Positions 1 through 37,413 of a stretch of DNA of 64,000 nt are shown piece after piece. The translations under genes and the position numbers were made by a program. The stretch comes from Eledone cirrhosa (taxonomy: Eukaryota): positions 354,144,001 through 354,208,000 of the forward strand of contig OZ024741.1 of the NCBI GenBank assembly GCA_964016885.1, in the 5' to 3' direction. The notes under the pieces were generated by a model. The model was not told where the DNA came from, did no database searches, and saw only the letters and a program-made list of their open reading frames with translations. The first letter of the stretch is position 1. Each line of letters opens with the position of its first letter.

Positions 1-3000
1 ACCACCAACACCACTATCACACCACTACTACCAACAACACTACCACACCATTACCACCACCAACACTATCACACCACTACCACCAACAACACTACCACAC
101 CACTACCACCAACACCACTATCACACCTCTACCACCAACAACACTATCACACCACTACCACCAACAACACTACCACACCACTACCACCAACAACACTACC
201 ACACCACTACCACCAACACCACTATCACACCACTACCACTAATACCACCACTATCACACCATTACCACCAATAAAACTACCACACCACTACCACCACCAA
301 TAAACCTACCACACCACTACCACCAACACCACTATCACATCACTACCACCAACACCACTATCACACCATTACCACCAACAACACTACCACACCACTACCA
401 CCAACACCACTATCACACCACTACCACCAACACCACTATCACACCACTACCACCAACACCACTACCACCAACACCACTATCACACCAGTACCACCAACAC
501 CACTATCACACCACTACTACCAACACCACTATCACACCACTACCACCAACAACACTACCACACCACTACCACCAACACCACTATCACACCACTACCACCA
601 ACACCACTATCACACCACTACCACCAACAACACCACTACCACACCATTACCACCAACAACACTACCACACCACTACCACCAACACCACTATCACACCACT
701 ACCACCAACACCACTATCACACCACTACCACCAACACCACTACCACCAACACCACTATCACACCAGTACCACCAACACCACTATCACACCACTACTACCA
801 ACACCACTATCACACCACTACCACCAACAACACTACCACACCACTACCACCAACACCACTATCACACCACTACCACCAACACCACTATCACACCACTACC
901 ACCAACACCACTACCACCAACACCACTATCACACCACTACCACCAACAACACTATCACACCACTACCACCAACACCACTATCACACCACTACCACCAACA
1001 CCACTACCACCAACACCACTACCACCAACACCACTATCACACCATTACCACCAACAACATTACCACACCACTACCACCAACACCACTACCACCAACACCA
1101 CTATCACACCATTACCACCAACAACACTACCACACCACTACCACCAACACCACTATCACACCACTACCACCAACAACACTACCACACCACTACCACCAAC
1201 ACCACTATCACACCACTACCACCAACACCACTATCACACCACTACCACCAACACCACTACCACCAACACCACTATCACACCACTACCACCAACAACACTA
1301 TCACACCACTACCACCAACACCACTATCACACCACTACCACCAACACCACTACCACCAACACCACTATCACACCATTACCACCAACAACACTACCACACC
1401 ACTACCACCAACACCACTATCACACCACTACCACCAACAACACTATCACACCACTACCACCAACACCACTATCACACCACTACCACCAACACCACTACCA
1501 CCAACACCACTATCACACCACTACTACCAACAACACTACCACACCATTACCACCACCAACACTATCACACCACTACCACCAACAACACTACCACACCACT
1601 ACCACCAACACCACTACCACACCACTACCACCAACAACACTACCACAACACTACCACCAACACCACTATCACACCACTACCACCAACACCACTATCACAC
1701 CACTACCACCAACACCACTATCACACCACTACCACCAACACCACTACCACCAACACCACTATCACACCACTACCACCAACACCACTATCACACCACTACC
1801 ACCAACACCACTACCACCAACACCACTATCACACCACTACCACCAACAACACTATCACACCACTACCACCAACACCACTATCACACCAGTACCACCAACA
1901 ACACTACCACACCACTACCACCAACAACACTACCACACCACTACCACCAACACCACTATCACACCACTACCACTAATACCACCACTACCACACCACTACC
2001 ACCAACAACACTACCACACCACTACCACCAACAACACCACTACCACACCACTACCATAAATACCACTACCACACCACTACCGCCACCAACAACACTATCA
2101 CACCACTACCACCAACACCACTACCACACCACTACAACCAACACCACTATCGCACCACTACTACCAACAACACTACCACACCATTACCACCACCAACACT
2201 ATCACACCACTACCACCAACAACACTACCACACCACTACCACCAACACCACTACCACACCACTACCACCAACAACACTACCACAACACTACCACCAACAC
2301 CACTATCACACCACTACCACCAACACCACTATCACACCACTACCACCAACACCACTACCACCAACACCACTATCACACCACTACCACCAACAACACTATC
2401 ACACCACTACCACCAACACCACTATCACACCACTACCACCAACACCACTATCACACCATTACCACCAACAACACTACCACACCACTACCACCAACACCAT
2501 TATCACACCACTATCACACCACTACCACCAACACCACTACCATCAACACCACTATCACACCAGTACCACCAACACCACTATCACACCACTACCACTAATA
2601 CCACCACTATCACACCACTACCACCAACAACACTATCACACCACTACTACCACCAACAACACTATCACACCACTACCACCAACACCACTATCACACCACT
2701 ACCACCAACACCACTATCACACCATTACCACCAACAACACTACCACACCACTACCACCAACACCACTATCACACCACTACCACCAACACCACTATCACAC
2801 CACTACCACCAACACCACTACCACCAACACCACTACCACCAACACCACTATCACACCACTACCACCAACAACACTACCACACCACTACCACCAACACCAC
2901 TATCACACCACTACCACCAACACCACTATCACACCACTACCACCAACACCACTACCACCAACACCACTATCACACCACTACCACCCACACCACTATCACA

Positions 3001-4410
3001 CCACTACCACCAACACCACTATCACACCACTACCACCAACACCACTATCACACCAGTACCACCAACACCACTATCACACCACTACCACCAACACCACTAT
3101 CACACCACTACCACCAACACCACTATCACACCACTACCACCAACACCACTACCACAACACTACCACCAACAACACTACCACACCACTACCACCAACACCA
3201 CTATCACACCACTACCACCAACAACACTACCACACCACTACTACCAACACCACTATCACACCACTACCACCAACACCACTATCACACCACTACCACCAAC
3301 ACCACTATCACACCACTACCACCAACACCACTATCACACCACTACCACCAACACCACTATCACAAACAACACTACCACACCATTACCACCAACACCACTA
3401 TCACACCACTTCCACCAACACCACTATCACACCACTACTACCAACACCACTATCACACCACTACCACCAACAACACTACCACACCACTACCACCAACACC
3501 ACTATCACACCACTACCACCAACACCACTATCACACCACTACCACCAACACCACTATCACACCACTACCACCAACACCACTATCACAAACAACACTACCA
3601 CACCACTACCACCAACACCACTATCACACCACTACCACCAACACCACTATCACACCACTACCACCAACACCACTATCTCACCACTACCACCAACACCACT
3701 ATCACACCACTACCACCAACACCACTATCACACCACTACCACCAACACCACTATCACAAACAACACTACCACACCACTACCACCAACACCACTATCACAC
3801 CACTACCACCAACACCACTATCACACCACTACCACCAACACCACTATCACACCACTACCACCAACACCACTATCACACCACTACTACCAACACCACTATC
3901 ACACCATTACCACCAACAACACTATCTCACCACTACCACCAACACCACTATCACACCACTACCACCAACAACACTATCACACCACTACCACCAACACCAC
4001 TATCACACCACTACCACCAACACCACTATCACACCACTACCACCAACACCACTATCACACCACTACCACCAACACCACTACCACCAACACCACTATCACA
4101 CCAGTACCACCAACACCACTATCACACCACTACCACCAACACCACTATCACACCACTACCACCAACACCACTATCACACCACTACCACCAACACCACTAT
4201 CACACCACTACCACCAACACCACTACCACCAACACCACTATCACACCACTACCACCAACACCACTATCACACCACTACCACCAACACCACTATCACACCA
4301 CTACCACCAACACCACTATCACACCACTACCACCAACACCACTACTACCAACACCACTATCACACCACTACCACCAACACCACTATCACACCACTACCAC
4401 CAACACCAAC
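1..4410. repeat. Minisatellite array, ~26-bp unit ACCACTACCACCAACACCACTATCAC with shorter variants; truncated by window start
   Basis: Continuous tandem reiteration visible in the sequence; almost no G on the + strand. Confidence 0.97.
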
Positions 4411-8832: not shown

Positions 8833-9340
8833 CATAATTAAATAAAGATAAAAATAAAAATGCCGTAGGCTTTACAATACAACGGGGGGAAACATAATAG
8901 TACCACTGGTGATGTCACAGATGTGTGACGAAAGAACTTTGATAGACTATATATATATATGTGTGTGTGTGTGTATTTTTAACCGTTGGTCAATCAATGA
9001 TAAACATTGATTGCCAGATAGATTAACTATGGAGATATAAAAGATGCAGAAGCGAAAACCAGCCCAAACCAAACAGTGACTGCGTTTTATTATTATTTCT
9101 GGCAAAATTATAACAATATGATTAAGTTAAGAATGTACATCCACATATGTATACTGAAATACTAGTATGCATATGAATACACACACGTGTACATATGTAG
9201 ATGTACCGAGTTTTTCACTGGTCACTTTACTGTGAGTGTCCAGCTATTCTGTATGTAAACACACAGACAAACCGGTTTTTAGAGTCATACTGGTTTTTGA
9301 GGAAACACCTTTCCTCTATTCTCCAGAAAGCCAGACAAGG

Positions 9341-9385
9341 AATATTGGACTAGTTTCGATGTTGTTACATCTCATCAGCAATATT
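9341..9385 (-). ncRNA. Minimal type I hammerhead ribozyme (mirror copy in left arm)
   Basis: Exact reverse complement of 9666-9710. Confidence 0.88.
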
Positions 9386-9665
9386 TACCCATCTTCCGGC
9401 CTTTCTAGAGAATCGTAAAAGCACATATCGTTATATGCTTTTTCTATGAAAATTAGTAGTGGGCAGACTAATTTGCATAGAGCGTGAGTACGTACCGGTT
9501 CAACGCAAAATTTAATTTCGTTTCGTTATTTGTTTTTATCGTCTCCGTTGAACCGGTACGTACTCACGCTCTATGCAAATTAGTCTGCCCACTACTAATT
9601 TTCATAGAAAAAGCATATAACGATATGTGCTTTTACGATTCTCTAGAAAGGCCGGAAGATGGGTA

Positions 9666-9710
9666 AATATTGCTGATGAGATGTAACAACATCGAAACTA
9701 GTCCAATATT
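9666..9710 (+). ncRNA. Minimal type I hammerhead ribozyme
   Basis: Stem I AATATTG/CAATATT, core CTGATGA, stem II GATGT-aaca-ACATC, GAAA, palindromic stem III region ACTAGT, GTC cleavage triplet ending at 9703. Confidence 0.88.
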
Positions 9711-10029
9711 CCTTGTCTGGCTTTCTGGAGAATAGAGGAAAGGTGTTTCCTCAAAAACCAGTATGACTCTAAAAACCGGTTTGTCTGTGTGTTTACATAC
9801 AGAATAGCTGGACACTCACAGTAAAGTGACCAGTGAAAAACTCGGTACATCTACATATGTACACGTGTGTGTATTCATATGCATACTAGTATTTCAGTAT
9901 ACATATGTGGATGTACATTCTTAACTTAATTGTTTAAGCGTCAGTCATACAAAAGTGAGTTACAAACGAAACAAAATTTAATTTCGTTTCGTTATTTGTT
10001 TTTATAACAATATGACCCTCCCCAAATAT

Positions 10030-10134
<105 letters not shown>

Positions 10135-23116: not shown

Positions 23117-23497
23117 ACGACAAAAAGCACCCATCACACACTGTAAAGTGGTCATGTAGGTGTCATGACAAAAAGCACCCAGCACACACTATAAAGTGGT
23201 CATGTAGGTGTCATGACAAAAAGCACCCAGCACACACTGTAAAGTGGTCATGTAGGTGTCATGACAAAAAGCACCCACCACACACTGTAAAGTGGTCATG
23301 TAGGTGTCATGACAAAAAGCACCCACCACACACTGTAAAGTGGTCATGTAGGTGTCATGACAAAAAGCACCCACCACACACTGTAAAGTGGTCATGTAGG
23401 TGTCATGACAAAAAGCACCCACCACACACTGTAAAGTGGTCATGTAGGTGTCATGACAAAAAGCACCCACCACACACTGTAAAGTGGTCATGTAGGT
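23117..23497 (+). repeat. ~8 tandem copies of a 48-bp unit from the interior of repeat family B
   Basis: Unit GTCATGACAAAAAGCACCCACCACACACTGTAAAGTGGTCATGTAGGT; the same unit occurs in dispersed (GAT)n-tailed elements. Confidence 0.92.
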
Positions 23498-29225: not shown

Positions 29226-29447
29226 GACAAAGAAGAAGTGGAAAATATGGCGAATCAATAAAAGCAAAGATGATGATCATACAGTAAAGAAGTGCTGTGA
29301 TAGAAAAAAAGGTGTACAATCCATGCAAGCAAGGAAAAAAAAGAAAAGAAAAATGTGGTGATGATGTTTATGATGGTATGTATAAGAACGTTGTTGTTGT
29401 TGTGGTAACGGTGGTAAGGAGGAGGAGTAGCAGTACAAGTGACAAAA

Positions 29448-32400
29448 ATATAACAGACATTATAATGACACCAATATAACAGACATTATCATGACACCAA
29501 TATAACAGACATTATCATGACACCAATATAACAGACATTATAAAGACGCCAATATAACAGACATTATCATGACACCAATATAACAGACATTATCATGACA
29601 CCAATATAACAACAGACATTATCATTACACCAATATAACAGACATTATCATGACACCAATATAACAGACATTATCATGATACCAAAATAACAGACATTAT
29701 CATGACACTAATATAACCACAGACATTATCATGACACCAATATAACAGACATTATCATGACACCAATATAACAGACATTATCAAGACACCAATATAACAA
29801 CAGACATTATCATGACACCAATATAACATACATTATCATGACACCAATATAACAGACATTATCATGACACCAATATAACAACAGACATTATCATGACACC
29901 AACATAACAGACATTATCATGACACCAATATAACAGACATTATCATGACACCAATATAACAACAGACATTATCATGACACCAATATAACAGACATTATTA
30001 TGACACCAATATAACAACAGACATTATCAAGACACCAATATAACAGACATTATCAAGACACCGATATAACAGACATTATCAAGACACCAATATAGCAGAC
30101 ATTATCATGACACCAATATAACAGACATTATCATGACACCAATATAACAGACATTATCATGACACTAATATAACAGACATTATCATGACACCAATATAAC
30201 AGACAGTATCAAGACACCAATATAACAGACATTATCATGACACTAATATAACAGACATTATCATGACACTAATATAACAGACATTATCAAGACACCAATA
30301 TAACAACAGACATTATCATGACACCAATATAACATACATTATCATGACACTAATATAACAGACATTATCAAGACACCAATATAACAGACAGTATCAAGAC
30401 ACCAATATAACAGACAGTATCAAGACACCAATATAACAGACATTATCATGACACTAATATAACAGACATTATCATGACACCAATATAATAGACATTATCA
30501 AGACTCCAATATAACAGACATTATCATGACACCAATATAACAGACATTATCAAGACATCAATATAACAGACATTATCAAGACACCAATATAACAACAGAC
30601 ATTATCAAGACACCAATATAACAGACATTATCATGACACCAATATAACCACAGACATTATCATGACACCAATATAACAACAGACATTATCAAGACACCAA
30701 TATAACAGACATTATCAAGACACCAATATAACAGACATTATCATGACACCAATATAACAGACAGTATCAAGACACCAATATAACAGACATTATCATGACA
30801 CTAATATAACAGACATTATCATGACACCAATATAACAGACATTATCATGACACTAATATAACAGACATTATCAAGACACCAATATAACAGACATTATCAA
30901 GACACCAATATAACAGACATTATCATGACACCAATATAACAGACATTATCAAGACACCAATAACAGACATTATCAAGACACCAATATAACAGACATTATC
31001 ATGACACCTATATAACAGACATTATCAAGACACCTATATAACAGACATTATCAAGACACCAATATAACAGACATTATCATGACACCAATATAACAACAGA
31101 CATTATCAAGACACCAATATAACAGACATTATCATGACACCAATATAACAGACATTATCAAGACACTAATATAATAGACATTATCAAGACACCAATATAA
31201 CAGACATTATCATGACACCAATATAACAGACATTATCATGACACCAATATAACAACAGACATTATCAAGACACCAATATAACAGACATTATCATGACACC
31301 AATATAACAGACATTATCAAGACACCAATATAACAACAGACATTATCAAAATACCAATATAACAGACATTATCATGACACTAATATAACAGACATTATCA
31401 TGACACCAATATAACAGACATTATCAAGACTCCAATATAACAGACATTATCATGACACCAATATAACAGACATTATCAAGACATCAATATAACAGACATT
31501 ATCAAGACACCAATATAACAACAGACATTATCAAGACACCAATATAACAGACATTATCATGACACCAATATAACAGGCATTATCATGACACCAATATAAC
31601 AGACATTATCAAGACTCCAATATAACAGACATTATCAAGAATCCAATATAACAGACATTATCAAGACACCAATATAACAGACATTATCATGACACCAATA
31701 TAACCACAGACATTATCATGACACTAATATAACAGACATTATCAAGACACCAATATAACAGACATTATCATGACACCAATATAACAACAGACATTATCAA
31801 GACACCAATATAACAGACATTATCAAGACACCAATATAACAGACATTATCATGACACCAATATAACAGACATTATCATGACACCAATATAACAGACATTA
31901 TCAAGACACCAATATAACAACAGCCATTATCAAGACACCGATATAACAGACATTATCAAGACACCAATATAACAGACATTATCATGACACCAATATAAGA
32001 CATTATCATGACACCAATATAACCACAGACATTATCAAGACACCAATATAACAGACATTATCATGACACCAATATAAGACATTATCAAGACACCAATATA
32101 ACAACAGACATTATCAAGACACCAATATAACAGACATTATCATGACACCAATATAACCACAGACATTATCAAGACACCAATATAACCACAGACATTATCA
32201 AGACGCCAATATAACCACAGACATTATCATGACACCAATATAACAACAGATATTATCATGACACCAATATAACAGACATTATCATGACACCAATATAACA
32301 GTCATTATCATGACACCAATATAACAGTCATTATCATGACACCAATATAACAGACATTATCATGACACCAATATAACCACAGACATTATCATGACACCAA

Positions 32401-35400
32401 TATAACAGACATTATCATGACAACAATAAAACAGTCATTATCATGACACCAATATAACAGACATTATCATGACACCAATATAACAGACATTATCATGACA
32501 CCAATATAACCACAGACATTACCATGACACCAATATAACAACAGACATTATCAAGACACCAATATAACAGACATTATCAAGAATCCAATATAACAGACAC
32601 TATCAAGACAGCAATATAACAGACATTATCATGACACCAATATAACCACAGACATTATCATGACACTAATATAACAGACATTATCAAGGCACCAATATAA
32701 CAGACATTATCATGACACCAATATAACAGACATTATCATGACACCAATATAACAGACATTATCAAGACACCAATATAACAACAGCCATTATCAAGACACC
32801 AATATAACAGACATTATCAAGACACCAATATAACAGACATTATCATGACACCAATATAAGACATTATCATGACACCAATATAACCACAGACATTATCAAG
32901 ACACCAATATAACAGACATTATCATGACACCAATATAAGACATTATCAAGACACCAATATAACAACAGACATTATCAAGACACCAATATAACAGACATTA
33001 TCATGACACCAATATAACCACAGACATTATCAAGACACCAATATAACCACATACATTATCAAGACACCAATATAACCACAGACATTATCATGACACCAAT
33101 ATAACCACAGACATTATCATGACACCAATATAACAGACATTATCATGACACCAATATAACAGTCATTATCATGACACCATAACAGACATTATCATGACAT
33201 CAATATAACAGACATTATCATGACACCAATATAACAACAGACACTATCAAGACACCAATATAACAACAGACATTATCAAGACACCAATATAACAGACATT
33301 ATCAATACACCAATATAACAGACATTATCAAGACACCAATATAACAGACATTATCATGACACCAATATAACCACAGACATTATCAAGACACCAATATAAC
33401 CAGAGACATTATCAAGACACCAATATAACAGACATTATCATGACAACAATATAACCACAGACATTATCATGACACCAATATAACAGACATTATCATGACA
33501 CCAATATAACAGACATTATCATGACACCAATATAACAACAGACATTATCATGACACCAATATAACAGATATTATCATGACACCAATATAACAGACATTAT
33601 CATGACACCAATATAACAGACATTATCAAGACACCAATATAACAACAGACATTATCATGACACCAATATAAACACAGACATTATCAAGACACCAATATAA
33701 CCACAGATATTATCATGACACCAATATAACAGACATTATCATGACACCAATATAACAGACATTATCAAGACACCAATATAACAGACATTATCATGACACC
33801 AATATAACAGACATTATCAAGACACCAATATAACCACAGACATTACCATGACACCAATATAACCACAGACATTATCAAGACACCAATATAACCACAGACA
33901 TTATCATGACACCAATATAACAGACATTATCAAGACACCAATATAACCACAGACATTATCATGACACCAATATAACAGGCATTATCATGACACCAATATA
34001 ACAGACATTATCATGACACCAATATAACAGACATTATCAAGACACCAATATAACCACAGACATTATCATGACACCAATATAACCACAGACATTATCAAGA
34101 CACCAATATAACCACAGACATTATCATGACACCAATATAACCACAGACATTATCAAGACACCAATATAACCACAGACATTATCATGACACCAATATAACA
34201 GACATTATCATGACACCAATATAACAGACATTATCAAGACACCAATATAACCACAGACATTATCAAGACACCAATATAACCACAGACATTATCAAGACAC
34301 CAATATAACAGACATTATCAAGACACCAATATAACCACAGACATTATCGTGACACCAATATAACAGACATTATCATGACACCAATATAACAGACATTATC
34401 AAGACACCAATATAACCACAGACATTATCATGACACCAATATAACCACAGACATTATCATGACACCAATATAACAGACATTATCATGACACCAATATAAC
34501 AGACATTATCATGACACCAATATAACAGACATTATCATGACACCAATATAACAGACATTATCATGACACCAATATAACAGACATTATCAAGACACCAATA
34601 TAACCACAGACATTATCATGACACCAATATAACCACAGACATTATCATGACACCAATATAACCACAGACATTATCATGACACCAATATAACCACAGACAT
34701 TATCATGACACCAATATAACAACAGACATTATCAAGACACCAATATAACCACAGACATTATCAAGACACCAATATAACAGACATTATCAAGACACCAATA
34801 TAACCACAGACATTATCATGACACCAATATAACAGACATTATCATGACACCAATATAACAGACATTATCAAGACACCAATATAACCACAGACATTATCAT
34901 GACACCAATATAACAGACATTATCATGACACCAATATAACAGACATTATCGAGACACCAATATAACCACAGACATTATCAAGACACCAATATAACAGACA
35001 TTATCAAGACACCAATATAACCAGACATTATCATGACACCAATATAACCACAGACATTATCATGACACCAATATAACAGACATTATCATGACACCAATAT
35101 AACAGACATTATCATGACACCAATATAACAGACATTATCAAGACACCAATATAACCACAGACATTATCATGACACCAATATAACCACAGACATTATCATG
35201 ACACCAATATAACCACAGACATTATCATGACACCAATATAACCACAGACATTATCATGACACCAATATAACAACAGACATTATCAAGACACCAATATAAC
35301 CACAGACATTATCAAGACACCAATATAACAGACATTATCAAGACACCAATATAACCACAGACATTATCATGACACCAATATAACAGACATTATCATGACA

Positions 35401-37413
35401 CCAATATAACAGACATTATCAAGACACCAATATAACCACAGACATTATCATGACACCTATATAACAGACATTATCATGACACCAATATAACAGACATTAT
35501 CGAGACACCAATATAACCACAGACATTATCAAGACACCAATATAACAGACATTATCAAGACACCAATATAACCACAGACATTATCATGACACCAATATAA
35601 CAGACATTATCATGACACCAATATAACAGTCATTATCATGATACCAATATAACCACAGACATTATCAAGACACCAATATAACAGACATTATCAAGACACC
35701 AATATAACCACAGATATTATCATGACACCAATATAACCACAGACATTATCATGACACCAATATAACCACAGACATTATCATGACACCAATATAACAGACA
35801 TTATCATGACACCAATATAACAGACATTATCATGACACCAATATAACAGACATTATCATGACACCAATATAACAGACATTATCATGACACCAATATAACC
35901 ACAGACATTATCAAGACACCAATATAACCACAGACATTATCATGACACCAATATAACAACAGACATTATCATGACACCAATATAACAGACATTATCATGA
36001 CACCAATATAACAGACATTATCATGACACCAATATAACAACAGACATTATCAAGACACCAATATAACAGACATTATCAAGACACCAATATAACAGACATT
36101 ATCATGACACCAATATAACCACAGACATTATCATGACACCAATATAACAGACATTATCATGACACCAATATAACAGTCATTATCATGACACCAATATAAC
36201 AGACATTATCAAGACACCAATATAACCACAGACATTATCATGACACCAATATAACAGTCATTATCATGACACCAATATAACAGACATTATCAAGACACCA
36301 ATATAACCACAGACATTATCATGACACTAATATAACAGACATTATCATGACACCAATATAACAGACATTATCAAGACACTAATATAACAGACATTATCAT
36401 GACACCAATATAACAGACATTATCATGACACCAATATAACCACAGACATTATCATGACACTAATATAACAGACATTATCATGACACCAATATAACAGACA
36501 TTATCATGACACCAATATAACAGACATTATCAAGACACCAATATAACCACAGACATTATCAAGACACCAATATAACTACAGACATTATCATGACACCAAT
36601 ATAACAACAGACATTATCAAGACACCAATATAACCACAGACATTATCATAACACCAATATAACAGACATTATCATGACACCAATATAACCACAGACATTA
36701 TCATGACACTAATATAACAGACATTATCATGACACCAATATAACAGACATTATCATGACACCAATATAACAGACATTATCAAGACACCAATATAACAGAC
36801 ATTATCATGACACCAATATAACAGACATTATCAAGACACCAATATAACCACAGACATTATCAAGACACCAATATAACCACAGACATTATCATGACACCAA
36901 TATAACAGTCATTATCATGACACCAATATAACAGACATTATCAAGACACCAATATAACAGACATTATCATGACACCAATATAACAGACATTATCAAGACA
37001 CCAATATAACAGACATTATCATGACACCAATATAACAGTCATTATCATGACACCAATATAACAGACATTATCATGACACCAATATAACCACAGACATTAT
37101 CAAGACACCAATATAACCACAGACATTATCATGACACCAATATAACCACAGACATTATCAAGACACCAATATAACCACAGATATTATCATGACACCAATA
37201 TAACCACAGACATTATCATGACACCAATATAACAGACATTATCATGACACCAATATAACCACAGACATTATCATGACACCAATATAACCACAGACATTAT
37301 CATGACACCAATATAACAGACATTATGATGACACCAATATAACCACAGACATTATCATGACACCAATATAACAACAGACATTATCATGACACTAATACAA
37401 CAGACATTACCAA
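29448..37413. repeat. ~8-kb minisatellite, 26-bp unit ACAGACATTATC(A/T)..: ACAGACATTATCATGACACCAATATA, with 29-bp variants; about 290-300 units
   Basis: Direct observation; lies in the last NEMF intron. Confidence 0.98.

Follow-up and report, generated by a model that had tools for sequence, protein, structure and literature searches.

The 880-bp insertion analyzed here lies in a 64-kb stretch of Eledone cirrhosa DNA (the whole of which is called the window) and is a very young copy of a 466-bp hammerhead repeat, a non-LTR retrozyme. Its palindrome is no one-off but the smallest form of an array architecture found across the family, in which a typical copy is a head-to-tail array with one central head-to-head inversion. 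The outer ends of these arrays are fixed and asymmetric, and the two arms of a locus appear to share a template. The retrozyme is probably integrated in trans by the RT and GIY-YIG protein of a Penelope-like element (PLE), through double priming on one, probably circular, RNA.

Anatomy of the insertion

The sequence TTATAACAATATGA stands at 9108–9121 and again at 10002–10015, with 880 bp in between. The arms of the palindrome (9121–9505 and 9546–9930) are 385 nt each, 100% complementary, and separated by 40 nt. The region around the insertion has 35% GC. Its features are listed below.

8876–10034, + strand: host, an older repeat of another hammerhead-bearing family, interrupted near its 3′ end (left limit by eye)
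9108–9121: left target-site duplication, 14 bp, the last base common to the inverted arm; single in 30/30 paralogous empty sites
9121–9505, − strand: inverted arm, unit 1–385 (0.83 unit), outer end at the “short” fixed site
9325–9396, − strand: hammerhead (type I) of the inverted arm; cleavage is predicted after GUC at 9348
9506–9545, + strand: last 40 nt of the preceding tandem unit (unit 427–466); head-to-head junction at 9505/9506, without microhomology
9546–10005, + strand: sense arm, unit 1–460, outer end at the “long” fixed site
9655–9726, + strand: type I hammerhead of the sense arm, predicted cut after GUC at 9703
9924–9938, + strand: small predicted hairpin (circular fold, end positions), its loop containing the second inferred RT start site (unit 385–391)
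9931–10005, + strand: PLE-type “tail” of about 69–75 nt, at one end only, with a 29-nt hairpin (9965–9993) and then 12 unpaired nt
10002–10015: right target-site duplication, the first 4 bases common to the element end
10035–10126: (TC)13(TA)33 microsatellite, 20 bp from the insertion

With unit position 1 set at window 9546, the insertion runs from 385 to 1 inverted, then 427–466, then 1–460, and amounts to 0.83 + 1.07 units of an ORF-less 466-bp non-LTR retrozyme. The 40 nt between the arms, read as a spacer in the original prediction, are the end of the preceding 466-bp unit, and 34 nt of them are identical to 9972–10005. No stop-to-stop frame of at least 100 aa overlaps the insertion, and the ORF bearing RT and GIY-YIG that would mark an autonomous PLE is lacking. 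The hammerhead cores at 9673 (+) and 9378 (−) are the sole two matches of the descriptor in the window, and the sense strand of each arm's hammerhead points outwards. The palindrome, the 14-bp duplication, the absence of an ORF, and the presence of a hammerhead in each arm are all as the original prediction had them.

The host repeat bears a hammerhead-like core of its own (about 8906–8939), with one base changed in the window copy, and 720 exact copies of its right-flank 29-mer are present in the genome. Some copies of the host family stand in head-to-head pairs. All 30 host copies fetched as paralogous empty sites carry the 14-mer once, with host sequence before it and no retrozyme, which establishes the target-site duplication in the window as real. 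The left flank matches that of the window at 32 or more of 40 ungapped positions in 15 of the 30, and most of the other copies have the same left flank, shifted by indels or shortened by other insertions.

The retrozyme prefers a simple target, as a TA run of at least 8 nt adjoins 114 of the 121 ends scored at 74 loci. The window copy is among the few inserted outside such a run, and its duplication is therefore unusually clear. Informative duplications across loci measure 11, 12, 13, 14, 15, and 17 bp, with 12 bp at L141. The window also holds two strand-skewed 26-bp minisatellites, one of about 167 copies at 1–4408 and one of about 295 at 29440–37409, together with 48-bp repeats at 23119, 42439, 44321, and 47946.

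A family of 466-bp retrozymes

The copy-number check proposed with the original prediction, a search of the 3.0-Gb genome with the arm, yielded 193 matches at 40 scored loci among 285 candidates. Tandem arrays were found with a period of 466 bp, in which the cores are 466 apart and the unit closes on itself; the window copy has only one core per arm. Exact cores of the window variant number 1,633 in the genome, rising to 7,819 once two variants of the stem are allowed and the cleavage base is left free (control 0) and to 40,646 when sister families are included (control 17). Copies identical to the window over 456 bp occur at 5 other loci, which upholds the view that a hammerhead retroelement of the retrozyme/PLE kind, unable to move by itself, inserted here very recently. 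The window haplotype is unchanged in L032–L035, the youngest set found.

The traits of the family are those of non-LTR retrozymes, namely dispersed insertions, duplications of 11–17 bp (more than 4 bp), and low GC. Plant LTR retrozymes are defined by a type III hammerhead and a 4-bp duplication, whereas the hammerhead here is type I and the duplications are 11–17 bp. The family belongs to the known class of metazoan retrozymes as an apparently new member; no account of it was located in the literature, and subscription papers, supplements, or Repbase and Dfam may hold one. Its unit is longer than the 170–400 nt first reported for metazoan non-LTR retrozymes (PMC7229834) and lies inside the 51–972 bp range of Li et al. 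2026 (10.64898/2026.07.22.740005).

A sister retrozyme family is present at L110:7500–9900, L130:600–1800, and L180–L198. Its units measure about 420–540 bp, and parts of them are 68–80% alike; helix II is closed by a U-U pair, and the cleavage-site base is A. This family probably supplies most of the 40,646 cores and appears to share the long and short ends. The flanks of L031–L140 contain repeated members of at least four more hammerhead families, whose stems differ, and the genome is very rich in ribozyme repeats.

Contig sets under two other organism labels contain sequences of the unit that seem to close on themselves. One 495-nt contig of set X4 (organism B) overlaps itself at unit length, and two contigs of set X6 (organism C) appear to close the same unit-length loop, both runs being without an RNA or DNA label. 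These contigs are about 97–98% identical, lack the host repeat, and fit circles, multimeric transcripts, or tandem DNA alike. Some words of the window stretch occur under 17 organism labels among the runs.

Fixed ends of the arrays

A total of 74 loci were fetched, comprising the 39 most like the window copy, 27 taken by position along C1, and 7 from a relaxed list, with the window included. Two-armed head-to-head loci make up 52 of the first 67 (window included). An arm at C1:5.74 Mb holds 31 cores. Both outer ends could be scored in 47 of the 74 loci, and every one of these pairs a long end (at about unit 454–460) with a short end (at about unit 383–392), never two alike. The remainder show the long end only (22), the short end only (3), neither (1), or an ambiguous pattern (1); 11 stray end-pattern matches from other repeats were removed by eye. 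A rule that single-armed copies always use the long end was rejected, since L194, L122, and L143 show the short end alone. Both end sites coincide with predicted hairpins. The one-sided tail, which is the PLE-type insertion signature, is seen at all 47 scorable loci.

Two unusual loci were set aside. At L041, where the retrozyme is joined directly to a PLE 3′ end, a template-switch chimera was rejected because no copy of the PLE part exceeds 96% identity to it, which makes that part older. The 5.5 kb between the arms of L144 contain a LINE-type RT frame and a duplicated flank, with no PLE. LINE-type RT frames followed by a PHD finger are found in the flanks of L141 and L149.

A probable single template for both arms

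Arms of the same locus are discordant at 8 of 1,243 family-SNP comparisons, where 217.5 would be expected if they were independent; no P value is attached because the SNP sites are linked. A further 33 locus-private alleles, in 12 loci, are common to both arms. On this evidence, both arms of a locus appear to be copies of one template.

The extents of the arms are independent. The short-end arm is the longer one in 22 of 46 loci, and arm lengths show no clear correlation, a point against the favored reading (rho 0.12, P 0.42, n=46; for 18 position-sampled loci the value is 0.45, P 0.06). The inner end of the long-end arm has a uniform phase relative to the second start site (P 0.54). Inner ends are at most 40 nt apart in 13 of 52 junctions, that of the window among them, where 17% are expected (P 0.11). 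Such independent extents and uncoupled inner ends argue against fold-back and against L1-type twin priming. Where no bases were inserted (37 junctions), microhomology averages 2.2 nt, against 0.75 expected of random joins. Less in keeping with joining by microhomology, extra bases stand at 15 of the 52 junctions, and the junction of the window shows none.

Arrays of 16, 7, 6, and 5 full units are internally identical, and a 12-unit array contains a single change; between loci, the median is 10 differences. Within-arm and between-arm differences in older arrays are of similar size. That the youngest arrays are long and uniform suggests that arrays are born long, in one step. None of 104 inner ends lies within 2 nt of the ribozyme cut site, which indicates that the templates are circles or uncleaved RNA. 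In L036, L128, L136, and L137, variants recur every 2–6 units. These periods need either later duplication (unequal exchange) or multimeric templates, and count against a template that is purely a monomer circle.

Hammerhead and RNA folding

The window hammerhead has a 6-bp helix I plus extension, a 5-bp helix II, and a 2-bp palindromic helix III. It is not the minimal type I form that lacks helix III, since its helix III consists of 2 bp with a palindromic loop. This is the “canonical metazoan type I” form, described as dependent, as a rule, on a second copy in tandem (Cervera and de la Pena 2014), and the short palindromic helix III predicts that cleavage would depend on a dimer. Eight of nine Xenopus retrozyme dimers failed to cleave in vitro (Li et al. 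2026, 10.64898/2026.07.22.740005). An Rfam search gave no match at the gathering level; the score for Hammerhead_HH9, 37.3 bits (E 1.8e-7), falls short of the 52 set as gathering score, and miRNA matches at the E-value level were rejected as reflections of the hairpin. The cleavage triplet at 9348 is GUU in most family sequence of runs X1, X5, and X6 and GUC in the youngest subfamily, that of the window.

Taken alone, the 71-nt hammerhead is of unremarkable stability (z −0.9); the predicted fold of the whole 466-bp unit is much more stable than those of shuffled sequences (z −9.5). Among 16 base pairs of the hammerhead compared in 17 copies, drawn from this family and its sister, 7 have changes in both partners, much of this change falling between the two families. 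The unit fold and the compensatory hammerhead pairs together point to selection on the structure of the retrozyme RNA.

The window copy is probably inert because the single ribozyme on each strand always follows its own antisense. Whichever the direction of transcription, the antisense arm comes first, and the predicted fold of the read-through insertion RNA is the full hairpin (−733.9 kcal/mol). The contest between self-cleavage and double-stranded RNA envisaged in the original prediction would be one-sided. Modeled in this way, the copy could not release a monomer circle alone, read-through would give a 385-bp hairpin, and the locus is probably a dead end, at most a source of dsRNA.

Penelope-like elements as candidate helpers

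The genome contains many RT+GIY-YIG elements, with 10,595 GIY-YIG candidates, 150 of which were scored. The loci and PLE families sampled yielded no autonomous element that has this hammerhead or the sequence of the unit, and a match may remain among the 10,595. The original prediction looked to a related PLE with the same hammerhead, and none came to light: PLE frames are linked to this hammerhead type at 0 of 20 sampled loci, and comparison of the unit with 5 PLE families gave scores at or barely above the shuffle maximum, from the AT/CA-rich palindrome only. By comparison, pLTR homology to the host PLE is described for 24 of 57 Xenopus retrozyme families (PMC7229834 / 10.64898/2026.07.22.740005). 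The link to PLEs is drawn from the insertion signature and not from homology, because no PLE with the same hammerhead was found.

Four of the 5 PLE families compared have the same short and long ends in (TA)n. Family A (L100) encodes a 938-aa RT+GIY-YIG frame with a CX4CX2C motif ahead of the GIY-YIG domain, an arrangement that looks like that of Neptune/Nematis. Of 40 copies scored, 20 lie dispersed in the genome and are identical over 601 bp, and a long end paired with a short one is found in 15 of the 15 scorable among 26 copies. Its 66-nt tail is the closest to the 69–75 nt of the retrozyme; the other sampled PLE families have long and short ends too, with tails of about 38–48 nt. Family A is apparently active, and co-active with the retrozyme, and is the best candidate helper by age, target, and tail length.

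Of the young family A copies that are long enough to judge (L206–L222), most carry a 775-aa RT+GIY-YIG frame whose start is out of frame with the N-terminal part, which, set against the single 938-aa frame of L100, is possibly due to a recoding site or a defective subfamily. Family B (L102), with a frame of 1,096 aa, was rejected as a young helper, since it shares 97% identity with the closest of its copies. The 3′ regions of autonomous PLEs (L100–L112) show atypical hammerhead-like motifs with altered cores, read by eye.

Proposed mechanism and alternatives

In the favored reading, retrozyme arrays elsewhere would give transcripts that are cleaved by hammerheads acting in tandem (as dimers) and closed into circles by ligation. 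Transcription, paired-hammerhead cutting, and circularization have been shown for retrozymes of other animals (PMC7229834), and retrozymes have been proposed as dependants of PLEs (PMC7229834; Li et al. 2026, 10.64898/2026.07.22.740005). The PLE protein would then cut both strands of an AT-rich target with a stagger of about 11–17 bp, and each DNA end would prime reverse transcription at its own fixed site on one retrozyme RNA. Each reverse transcriptase may run round the template a variable number of times before the two cDNAs meet and join head-to-head by microhomology. For the window copy, one enzyme would have made 500 nt of cDNA, going a full turn and then 34 nt beyond where it began, and the other 385 nt. 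A more specific double rolling-circle version is tentative and falls slightly short of an even chance. It places a PLE dimer on one ribozyme-made circle, with the two sites about 70 nt apart, both enzymes running at once, and the helper recognizing RNA shape rather than pLTR sequence.

The nearest alternative keeps PLE double priming unchanged and takes as template a long linear transcript, read through from a parent array and left uncleaved. Parent arrays of 19 to 31 units exist, uncleaved RNA is the main substrate of the anole PLE in vitro (PMC11167929), the 2–6-unit periods of four arrays suit such a template, and uncleaved RNA would explain the lack of ends at the cut site no less well than circles do. 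It is nonetheless unlikely: many different haplotypes are each uniform throughout a two-armed array, their private alleles standing in both arms, which calls for a bottleneck of a single unit during every insertion or immediately before it. Moreover, the hammerhead is maintained by compensatory change, and an informal look noticed no daughter array with the ordered variant run of a parent. Mobilization of the RNA by a LINE (L1/RTE/CR1-like) would suit the LINE-type RT frames that are common near retrozyme loci. L1 twin priming also creates a head-to-head inversion within a duplicated target, with junction microhomology, and the 11–17 bp duplications and microhomology seen here resemble L1 inversions. 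In L1 twin priming, however, the second start is tied to the stop of the first cDNA, whereas that of the retrozyme is fixed and independent of it, as the uniform phase shows. Both retrozyme arms can exceed one unit, there is no poly(A) or simple-repeat tail, and the long and short ends and (TA)n target are common to the RT+GIY-YIG elements of the genome, all of which makes a LINE very improbable.

Self-priming, or fold-back, on an antisense template has been proposed for the inverted copies of bdelloid PLEs, with palindromes at inverted junctions as the argument (Arkhipova et al. 2013, PMC3846280). The 13 junctions with inner ends at most 40 nt apart, the window's included, could be read in the same way, but this number is not above chance. 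Either arm may exceed the other by several units, and both outer ends lie at fixed RNA sites adjoining target DNA, so that fold-back is an improbable source of the inverted arm. A palindrome with 100% identical arms could also be a fold-back read or assembly artefact, and no contig spanning the insertion was found among the four contig sets compared with 8980–9545. The original prediction held that the duplication argues against this, and the 30 paralogous empty sites, each with a single 14-mer, bear it out. With 52 loci of the same architecture but different junctions, and two other head-to-head junctions of the family in contigs of run X1, an artefact is scarcely credible. Double priming by a PLE protein is left as the probable explanation.

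Comparison with known systems

Published accounts of retrozymes (PMC7229834; 10.64898/2026.07.22.740005) describe head-to-tail arrays, whereas the family reported here has a central head-to-head inversion, fixed long and short ends, and (TA)n targeting. No report of head-to-head retrozyme arrays or of double priming on one template was located in the literature; subscription papers, supplements, and repeat databases may differ. As a rule, PLEs show inverted copies and have the tail on one side (PMC8557442, PMC3846280). As described there, EN+ PLEs of the Neptune/Nematis kind share with the retrozyme tandem and inverted 5′-truncated copies, a tail at one end, microsatellite targets, duplications of about 10 bp, and a hammerhead in the repeat. 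The retrozyme differs from them in having no ORF and in consisting wholly of one circularly permuted, repeated unit. Its tail is about 70 nt rather than 30–40, and its arrays, unlike those of EN+ PLEs, reach tens of units.

The purified Anolis PLE, Poseidon PAc, cuts and extends both strands, and two internal starts flank the tail (PMC11167929). It resembles the system proposed here in its two RT starts within stem-loops, its AT-rich target, and its predicted dimer. In vitro, PAc shows no strand difference in start site (PMC11167929), whereas the two retrozyme ends always differ. The report, in the portion covered, gives no model for inverted copies.

Implications

The origin of tandem and inverted structures in PLEs has been stated as an open question (PMC8557442), and the movement of animal retrozymes is still a hypothesis (PMC7229834; 10.64898/2026.07.22.740005). 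The 466-bp family records both processes in thousands of young copies, with fixed asymmetric ends and apparently one template per locus, and retrozyme loci are an unusually clean record of PLE integration. Because a defined RNA, an apparently active candidate helper protein, and a target are present in one genome, PLE integration becomes testable in vitro. Satellite-like arrays can arise in one step. If the double rolling-circle version is true, a single event would produce an entire head-to-head array of satellite type, uniform and up to tens of units long. The tail and the inverted repeat of PLEs, as well as the way hammerhead satellites are born, would then have one common explanation. The genome is seeded with long perfect hairpins, which, if transcribed, would be substrates for RNA silencing or editing.
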